A stretch of DNA of 64,000 bases from Bdellovibrionales bacterium (GTDB lineage: Bacteria; Bdellovibrionota; Bdellovibrionia; Bdellovibrionales; UBA1609): NCBI GenBank assembly GCA_027317865.1, contig DAHVQG010000008.1, forward strand, positions 1 to 64,000, read 5' to 3'. Below are positions 3,177 through 3,803 of the stretch, piece by piece. Each line of letters opens with the position of its first letter. The stretch's first letter is position 1. The translations under genes and the position numbers were made by a program. Under the pieces are notes generated by a model that saw only the letters and a program-made list of their open reading frames with translations, ran no database searches and was not told the DNA's origin.

Positions 3177-3803
3177 CTATGGTGACAGAATCTCTTTCAT
3201 TGCGCTAGTGCCGCCGTAGTCGCCGGCGGTCGACGTCGCAACGATAAAATACGGCCAATCGGTTTCTTGCTTGAGCGCCTCCCAAACGAGTTGCAGCCGC
3301 ATTTTCTGGTCTAACGTCAGAGCCGAGAATTCCGGGATGTAAATTGTCATTTCCCCCAATTCTTTTACTGCGCTTGGTTTGAGCCAGACTTCAGCTGATA
3401 CATCAGCATAACTAACGAACGCAAACCGCCCCGAATCGTGATGAAAATCAATCGCTCTTCGCCAATTTTTTTCTTGGTCGCCCGACAAAAATTGAATGTG
3501 CTCCGTAGGCGGGGTCGCCTCTTTTCGCTCAAGCGGGAACTTTTGCTCGCGATATTGCGACAGTCGCACGACTTGGCCATTTCGTTCCAACTCGTGTAAC
3601 TCGAGGAGTTTTTCAAAATGTGCGGCTTCATCGCGAAGATCATTTAATTTGCGCCGGCCCAAACGCACGTCATCTAAAATTTCGCGGATGAGATTTGTAA
3701 GTTCTTCGGCTTTCTTTTCGCTTATATTTGTTCGCCGCTCGTTTAACCGCGCGTACAAAACTTCTGACAAACGCTCCGCCTGTTCAGCGTACATCTCCAT
3801 CAA
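3177..3803 (-). CDS. Hypothetical protein: N-terminal coiled coil plus degenerate sigma54-interaction AAA+-like domain
   Basis: SD GGAGG; segments align by eye with the neighbouring activator ([43 protein letters not shown]) but Walker A/B and GAFTGA are lost. Confidence 0.65.
   Translation of the reverse strand: [208 protein letters not shown]

Follow-up and report, generated by a model that had tools for sequence, protein, structure and literature searches.

A predicted dead relative of sigma-54 activators at the head of a putative amgK-murU operon in Bdellovibrionales

Sigma-54 activators, for which the name bacterial enhancer-binding proteins (bEBPs) is also in use, are a textbook model of AAA+ motors in transcription, and their known restraint uses unrelated partner proteins. 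PspA is a coiled-coil IM30 protein, NifL is PAS-kinase-like, FleN is a MinD-type ATPase, and HrpV is a small protein; besides, pspA heads a sigma-54 operon and lies beside the gene of its activator. FleT acts together with FleQ as a hetero-oligomer, and TyrR, NtrX, and HupR are non-canonical bEBP relatives that act as sigma-70 regulators without the use of sigma-54. In another process, the clamp-loader delta-prime protein is an inactive AAA+ subunit that is kept in a mixed ring. Here we describe an open reading frame (ORF; positions 3177 to 3803, minus strand) in a window of 64,000 nucleotides (nt) from a predatory, Bdellovibrio-like Bdellovibrionales bacterium (GenBank assembly GCA_027317865.1, contig DAHVQG010000008.1, positions 1 to 64,000 of the forward strand). 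It lies between the gene of a genuine bEBP and the genes of an AmgK-like sugar kinase and a MurU-like nucleotidyltransferase. We conclude with high confidence that this ORF encodes a bEBP-derived, dead AAA+ protein within a sigma-54 operon, and it may represent a new kind of built-in regulator of the neighbouring activator.

Homology to bEBPs was detected at the level of the family to which the ORF product belongs. The ORF product gave no match in Pfam and NCBIfam at E <= 1 apart from noise, and pairwise BLASTP against the neighbouring bEBP gave nothing significant, the best hit (E 0.27) lying in a different register. For profile comparisons we used a 36-sequence family alignment (A1) and a 29-sequence alignment of the long form of the family (A3). 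In hhalign, A1 matched residues 223 to 370 of the window bEBP with an E value of 1.4e-4, placing FIVATS opposite VIAATN and the Walker B strand opposite GTFFLDEI. The comparison of A3 with nine bEBP orthologues gave a probability of 95.6% and an E value of 1.1e-8 over 167 columns, and this match reaches into the lid (family positions 126 to 298 against bEBP positions 200 to 408). An earlier reading of the DNA, made from the letters and translations without database searches (the sequence-only reading), had aligned the C-terminal half of the protein with the neighbouring bEBP by eye, and both profile comparisons recovered the same register.

Searches with the family profile were equally selective for sigma-54 regulators. 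Among PDB sequences we obtained 22 distinct matches at E <= 10 (best E, 7.1e-5), all of them NtrC-family or sigma-54 regulators, including NtrC1, FleQ, FlrA, NtrX, ZraR, NifA, and VpsR. A hidden Markov model (HMM) of the family, run over the ORFs of at least 100 amino acids (aa) in the window's own genome, returned the ORF itself (E 1.3e-33) and otherwise eleven ORFs with E values up to 0.03; all 11 are bEBPs found by PF00158, and no other AAA+ protein appeared. When 10 homologues were scanned, PF14532 (Sigma54_activ_2) was listed in seven: two exceeded the 25-bit gathering cut-off, with 32.9 and 29.1 bits, a third reached 24.7 bits, and four were weaker; three had no match. A single one of these homologues had a weak PF00158 match (E 0.11). 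The family misses PF00158 and, in many members, also PF14532. Taken at the family level, the profile matches indicate homology to the AAA+ domain of sigma-54 activators.

Structure predictions were in accord with this assignment. The AlphaFold2 model of the window protein, built on the family alignment, has a predicted local distance difference test score (pLDDT) of 81.8 and consists of two helices, a poorly defined segment, and a confidently modeled core (residues 100 to 195, above 90). Searched against the PDB with Foldseek, it matched P-loop NTPase chains only, nearly all of them AAA+, including the PF14532-type domain 3co5 and NtrC1, with a weak best E value of 6e-3. VIA-align of window residues 94 to 208 gave Z scores of 7.8 to 8.9 over 96 to 112 residues, with root-mean-square deviations of 3.0 to 4.4, and the bEBPs (VpsR, FleQ, LuxO, GtrR, FlrC, NtrC1, PspF, and 3co5) were tied with Rix7, FtsH, RuvB, and p97. 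The window model thus shows the AAA+ fold and does not separate the clades. For the long form we modeled the homologue of locus L005 (pLDDT 87.2) and compared residues ~170 to 293 exhaustively with 48,161 chains. The top five AAA+ rows were of the bEBP type, namely, 4bs1_B (Z 12.6; an NtrC-family regulator chain according to the PDB profile listing), VpsR (11.9), GtrR (11.0), NtrX (10.9), and NtrC4 (10.6), and the non-bEBP AAA+ proteins ranked lower (Lon, 9.9; RuvB, 9.3; clamp loaders, ~9). Profile and structural matches were thus both found for the relation to the Sigma54_activat-type AAA+ fold that the sequence-only reading had proposed.

We then counted motif columns on the 36-row alignment, after mapping them through the hhalign register. 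The column of the Walker A lysine (K235 in the bEBP) holds a lysine in 0 of 36 members; the P-loop position of the window protein reads SGDQEKN, and the lysine found one position earlier is not conserved. In the Walker B aspartate column, no member has an aspartate and 18 of 36 have a proline, and the adjoining glutamate column holds an aspartate in 17 and a glutamate in 12 of the 36; the window protein reads IYIPE (P157-E158). The neighbouring bEBP carries a GAFTGA-type loop, spelled GSFTGA, and this stretch and its flanks, roughly 20 to 25 residues, fall in an alignment gap in both hhalign comparisons. The arginine fingers (FREDLYYRL in the bEBP) are replaced in long forms by I-L-P-E-L-W-P-Y-L, in which the arginines are gone, and the region is absent from the window protein. 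The lid is reduced in the family and absent from the window form, which stops after the sensor-I strand (FIVATS). No helix-turn-helix (HTH) match, either to HTH_8 or to HTH_50, was found in the window protein and the 10 homologues scanned. The sequence-only reading had described a destroyed Walker A, a Walker B in which DE has become PE, a deleted GAFTGA loop, and a missing HTH, and all four descriptions hold for the window protein and, where counted, for its family. Other elements of the domain are kept: a bEBP-typical helix, A-x-x-I-H-x-x-S-x-R, follows the P-loop position, with A117 and H121 invariant in 36 of 36 members, and a G-x-x-T-hhh strand, the next L-x-x-x-Q-Q helix, and a P-Q-I-I-A-G-T strand can also be recognized. 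The family is thus related to the AAA+ domain of sigma-54 activators and is catalytically dead by its motifs; with these motifs and the HTH lost, a family protein therefore cannot be an activator alone.

Compared with canonical bEBPs (PF00158 and PF14532), the family has the same AAA+ alpha/beta core and strand order, with the Walker B and sensor-I strands in register, and its long-form members have the sensor-linker-AAA+ layout in common with them, whereas the P-loop lysine, the Walker B aspartate, the L1/GAFTGA loop, the arginine fingers, the HTH, and much of the lid set the two apart. Thus, by homology the family is assigned to the bEBP clade, and by its motifs it has none of the functional features of a bEBP. 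The clamp-loader delta-prime subunit likewise has an AAA+ fold without nucleotide binding, although it belongs to a different AAA+ clade and process. Among non-canonical bEBPs, VpsR (PMC6158489) has likewise lost the sigma-54-contacting motif; such proteins keep nucleotide binding and a DNA-binding domain, neither of which is found in the family, and act as sigma-70 regulators. In the fold comparison of the long form, VpsR and NtrX stood within the five best AAA+ rows.

The position of the family gene, first in a sigma-54 operon beside an activator gene, resembles that of pspA. No PspA_IM30 match was found for the window protein in Pfam and NCBIfam at E <= 1, and the likeness to PspA is one of gene position and proposed logic only. 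That logic, in which a partner binds and damps the AAA+ domain of an activator, would be shared with PspA/PspF, NifL/NifA, FleN/FleQ, and HrpV/HrpS; published reports deal with FleN (PMC8528422), with NifL-NifA (PMC12998190), and with HrpV and HrpRS (PMC3105312). Unlike the family protein, none of PspA, NifL, FleN, and HrpV is known to be a bEBP look-alike. No paper on the family, or on a dead subunit of the bEBP type, came up in full-text literature searches. In a term search, the main text of a comparative genomics study of Bdellovibrionota (PMC11656739) had no mention of sigma, AAA, or enhancer, and its supplements might list the family with other lineage-specific proteins.

A word-indexed homologue search returned one protein only, 97% identical to the ORF product. 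In an exhaustive search of 1.84 billion representatives, 26 proteins passed E <= 1e-3, and three reached E <= 1e-10. In a six-frame search, 29 of 61 related genomes (the window's own counted) had a match, and each of the six other members of its genus was among them. Members come mostly from metagenome-assembled genomes (MAGs) of Bdellovibrionales and are mostly annotated as "hypothetical protein" in the source records; the automatic name of a sister cluster in the ESM Atlas already reflects the bEBP resemblance for some members. Most relatives are 290 to 330 aa long and consist of a GAF-like sensor, a linker helix, the dead AAA+ core, and a lid stub. Residues ~2 to 141 of the L005 model match the GAF domains of phytochromes and of other proteins, including that of the bEBP Nlh1, with Z scores in the middling range (8.0 to 10.3), and Pfam GAF gave no match in the 10 homologues scanned; to call the N-terminal domain of the long form GAF-like is reasonable, not firm.

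In contrast to the long form, the ~205-aa form was seen only in the cluster of the window protein and in L002 and L003, which are sister species. Alignment with long forms indicates that the window form consists of the linker helix and the core, with the GAF-like sensor and the C-terminal lid stub gone. Window residues ~14 to 75 align with the final strand of the long form and its long linker helix (helix 89 to 133 in L005). The N-terminal helices of the window protein are therefore a linker kept from a longer GAF-AAA+ ancestor, and the coiled coil that the sequence-only reading had taken for an added feature is not a gain, since it aligns with the linker helix of the ~300-aa relatives. Across the three short-form species-level lineages, which are 44 to 47% identical, 63 positions are invariant and cluster in the helix and the alpha/beta core. 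Even near-identical copies differ in their C-terminal tails. This pattern is that of a constrained gene rather than a fresh truncation. The N-terminal part of the profile is absent in 13 of the 57 family genes found next to the bEBP (profile start at or beyond position 49), and in one of them, L022 from the sister species, the C-terminal part is missing too, as it is in the window form.

We further examined the regulatory sequence and the genomic context. The sequence-only reading had suggested a sigma-54-dependent promoter for the gene, and this proposal is borne out by conservation of the motif. GGCAC-N5-TTG(C/T) precedes the homologue in 11 of 12 related-genome loci, and it precedes the family gene in 36 of 57 loci that were fetched with the bEBP, against only 51 occurrences of the motif in all of the 1,175,876 nt scanned on both strands. 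On the minus strand, a search between positions 3804 and 4057 gave no sigma-70-like promoter. Distant relatives have the canonical TTGC, often as YGGCACR-N4-TTGCCTTA. In the window's genome, TGGCAC-N5-TTGT occurs 16 times and TGGCAC-N5-TTGC 9 times, and the lineage may prefer a T at the last -12 position. The same genome has 15 full bEBPs and an rpoN gene cut by a contig end (C22:3-878, minus strand), of which TIGR02395 positions 1 to 259 are present; a search of the genome for Sigma54_DBD gave no match because rpoN is cut there.

Loci related to the window were collected with the bEBP alignment, which gave 301 in species-representative genomes; 80 were kept, with bEBPs 70 to 90% identical, from MAGs of Bdellovibrionales and Pseudobdellovibrionaceae. 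A family gene was found behind the bEBP, on its strand, in 57 of the 80 loci. Behind the family gene, and in the same orientation, an amgK-like gene was present in all of the 49 loci with enough sequence (eight were too short), often with overlapping or abutting frames, and a murU-like gene follows amgK in most loci with enough sequence. The tightest genomic link of the family gene is therefore to the amgK-like and murU-like genes, which fits the first gene of a regulated operon and also fits a role tied to the enzymes. In the window, the amgK-like gene starts one base after the ORF stop, so that the two genes are probably in the same operon. Thus, the module consists of a sigma-54 promoter, the dead subunit, and the amgK-like and murU-like genes, and it lies usually, not always, behind this bEBP. 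The features of the locus are listed in Table 1.

Table 1. Coordinates of the activator-like gene and surrounding features in the window
Feature	Position	Strand	Description
MurU-like sugar-1-phosphate nucleotidyltransferase	1002-2084	minus	NTP_transferase E 1.7e-23; NF045761 E 1.1e-22, 81 bits vs cut-off 250; closes the putative operon
AmgK-like sugar kinase (APH fold)	2099-3175	minus	NF045759 E 2.3e-42, 145 bits vs cut-off 550; begins one base past the ORF stop
ORF, bEBP-like degenerate AAA+ protein	3177-3803	minus	208 aa counted from TTG 3803; stop codon 3177-3179
Degenerate AAA+ alpha/beta core, residues 100-195	3219-3506	minus	predicted; pLDDT >90; hhalign register; Foldseek and VIA matches
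Two helices, residues 2-74 (2-22, 29-74)	3582-3800	minus	AlphaFold2 model; homologous to the sensor-domain end and long linker helix of ~300-aa relatives
Shine-Dalgarno-like GGAGGG	3804-3809	minus	10 nt before ATG 3794, 4 nt before ATG 3800; read from the sequence
Sigma-54-type promoter TGGCAC-GTGAT-TTGTA	3829-3844	minus	-24 GG at 3843-3842; -12 TTGT; ~20 nt before the Shine-Dalgarno
Weak terminator-like hairpin	3929-3945	minus	between the bEBP stop and the sigma-54 promoter
Genuine sigma-54 activator (bEBP)	4058-5608	minus	PocR-like sensor E 8.6e-7; Sigma54_activat PF00158 E 2.9e-69; AAA lid; Fis-type HTH_8 E 4.6e-13

As the domain matches in Table 1 show, the gene does stand beside a real activator, as had been read from the letters. 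The two enzymes are called AmgK-like and MurU-like because both score below the NCBIfam equivalog cut-offs. As for the start of the ORF, the nine near-identical sequences of the window's 90% cluster are 204 to 206 aa long, and since eight of the nine begin at MYAEQ (the other begins at MEMY), the true start is likely ATG 3794 (205 aa) or otherwise ATG 3800 (207 aa), rather than TTG 3803.

The sequence-only reading had suggested that the protein is an anti-activator or a hetero-oligomer subunit giving feedback. From these data we propose a mechanism in which the neighbouring bEBP would activate the promoter upstream of the ORF, and the level of the dead subunit would rise with expression of the operon. 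The dead subunit would dock on the bEBP through its retained AAA+ core and linker helix, which are normal self-association surfaces, and would enter or cap the bEBP ring, in which it could neither hydrolyze ATP nor engage sigma-54. Activation would thereby be lowered or tuned, giving negative feedback in the style of PspA on PspF, and in the long forms the GAF-like domain would make the effect ligand-dependent. We favor negative feedback because a subunit without the L1 loop, the arginine fingers, and ATP binding should weaken a mixed ring. That the dead subunit acts by binding the bEBP, with either sign, seems somewhat probable to us, and the whole account, including negative feedback on the neighbouring bEBP, is put forward tentatively. 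A wider version, which we regard as doubtful, is that such proteins are lineage-wide pseudo-activators with a live GAF-like sensor and a dead motor, gating the hexamer of a genuine activator by subunit mimicry. In predatory Bdellovibrionales, such pseudo-activators would tie sigma-54-dependent expression of the N-acetylmuramic acid (MurNAc) salvage genes to how much of a cell-wall recycling metabolite is present, or simply to the output of the operon.

Several observations weigh against this account. At the level of homology, the window protein itself gave no match to PF14532 and none to PF00158 at E <= 1, and the ORF is outside the 20 PF00158 matches of its own genome. In the own-genome HMM search the adjacent bEBP (E 2.2e-4) was outscored by another bEBP (E 9.1e-5), and it is therefore not singled out as a specific paralogue or partner. 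The N-terminal domain of the long form matched the PocR-like domain of the bEBP with a probability of 14% only (E 0.002, 36 columns); the own-genome HMM search aligned a short N-terminal segment to the adjacent bEBP alone, and this similarity is at most a hint of paralogy. At the level of the promoter, the -12 element of the window reads TTGT and the canonical one TTGC, and 21 of the 57 loci are without the strict motif, several of them with a family gene that abuts the bEBP stop. A shared upstream activator site was sought in 37 promoter-upstream regions with 7-mer counts and inverted repeats, and none was convincing; many of the inverted repeats there are terminators of the bEBP genes.

The genomic linkage to the bEBP is also incomplete. 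Of the 23 loci in which no family gene follows the bEBP, nine are too short downstream, and 14 have at least 1.7 kb of sequence. Among five genomes in which the bEBP lacks this neighbour, two carry the family gene elsewhere, directly upstream of amgK, and one of these two has the sigma-54 motif; the other three have amgK-murU without the family gene and without the motif (one with only ~155 nt upstream). Since the bEBP persists without an adjacent family gene, it must have other targets.

Besides negative feedback, the dead subunit might be a positive partner, that is, a required, stabilizing, or signal-delivering member of a mixed bEBP ring that gives feed-forward regulation. The bEBP-type core, the conserved linker, and the genomic coupling would fit this equally, and the GAF-like sensor of the long form, absent in the PocR-type bEBP, could add an input. 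From the mechanism of bEBPs, on the other hand, a subunit without the L1 loop and the arginine fingers is expected to weaken the ring, and the bEBP occurs without a nearby family gene in 14 loci and without any family member found in three genomes, from which it follows that the partner is not needed in general. Co-operating bEBP pairs that could serve as models are published, namely, HrpR/HrpS (PMC3105312) and RedR1/RedR2 (PMC10084136), each a hetero-oligomer of two active proteins. Overall, we consider a positive partner unlikely. To the same low degree we give credit to a role directed at the enzymes, in which the protein would serve the AmgK-like and MurU-like enzymes as sensor, scaffold, or allosteric regulator and would have its bEBP fold by inheritance only. 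The complete linkage to amgK, with which the gene travels when apart from the bEBP, agrees with such a role, but one would expect it just as much if the gene were the first in a regulated operon. Moreover, the gene co-occurs with the sigma-54 promoter, amgK-murU being motif-free in the three genomes where the gene is absent, and locus L010 keeps the gene beside the bEBP though amgK-murU is inverted there. We know of no precedent for a GAF plus dead AAA+ protein that regulates such enzymes.

It is quite improbable that the short form is a decaying remnant, a pseudogene-like leftover of the long form. The loss of the sensor and the lid stub, as well as the variable C-terminal tail among near-identical copies, would be expected of a remnant, but the short architecture is intact in three divergent lineages with their 63 invariant positions, no frame breaks were seen, the Shine-Dalgarno and the conserved promoter are kept, and the stop codon lies one base before amgK. 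As for a chance resemblance, in which the protein would have a generic P-loop-like alpha/beta fold only, the insignificant BLASTP result, the lack of a Pfam match for the window protein, and the window Z scores of 8 to 9 tied with other AAA+ proteins would speak for it. We find it barely credible and reject it, since the profile-profile match is strong and in register, the PDB and own-genome matches are exclusively bEBPs, the PF14532 cut-off is passed in two homologues, and bEBP chains come first in the exhaustive fold search.

Some further observations concern the promoter region and its sequence context. Many TGGCAC-N5-TTGTA candidates in the genome lie just upstream of ORFs with signal-peptide-like or lipoprotein-like starts (e.g., C11:344161, C39:26336, C33:92082, and C40:78080 and 85226). 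A perfect inverted repeat, GTAAAC-N10-GTTTAC, is located at positions 4004 to 4025 (minus strand), ~170 to 185 nt upstream of the promoter, a distance typical of enhancers; its counterpart as a conserved site was not found in the other loci. The -24 element itself lies within another inverted repeat, TGGCAC-N15-GTGCCA (3818 to 3844), which spans the predicted start site and yields a second TGGCAC on the plus strand (3818 to 3823) without a TTGC partner. A GTGCC...GGCAC palindrome at -24 is found in 3 of 36 related loci (L030, L034, and L060) and is not general.

Variation in gene arrangement was also observed. In seven loci (L028, L029, L031, L032, L037, L042, and L045) the family gene is without the N-terminal sensor part and without a strict sigma-54 motif, and it starts from a few bases to ~130 nt after the bEBP stop, which suggests that in this subgroup it is cotranscribed with the bEBP and not expressed from a promoter of its own. 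In L010 (G031:C1:2359779-2363033, a complete genome) the family gene follows the bEBP, and murU and amgK lie on the opposite strand in convergent orientation. The PocR-type bEBP is unusually conserved: across nine orthologues, the first 17 and the last ~40 residues are invariant or nearly so. An ORF at positions 86 to 961 of the window (plus strand) encodes 291 aa; its start resembles a signal peptide, and it contains long runs of low complexity rich in Gly and Pro (GGPGGGPGGGPGG and GGGGGGAAGGG).

If the proposed mechanism is true, a conserved dead copy of the motor, encoded next to the gene of its likely activator, would be well suited by nature to a dominant-negative or adaptor role, and its mode of anti-activation would be outside the known PspA, NifL, FleN, and HrpV types. 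Regulation by mimicry with a pseudo-enzyme can be tested directly at this locus. In addition, the locus points to the salvage of peptidoglycan sugars, through amgK-like and murU-like genes, as a target of sigma-54 control in predators that consume the cell walls of their prey, and such control would fit a published proposal in which the cell exterior is governed by sigma-54 (PMC3162934). As pseudo-ATPases of bEBP descent whose regulatory context is conserved, the proteins of this family extend the known bEBP clade, and they would add a class of sigma-54 control if the account is true.

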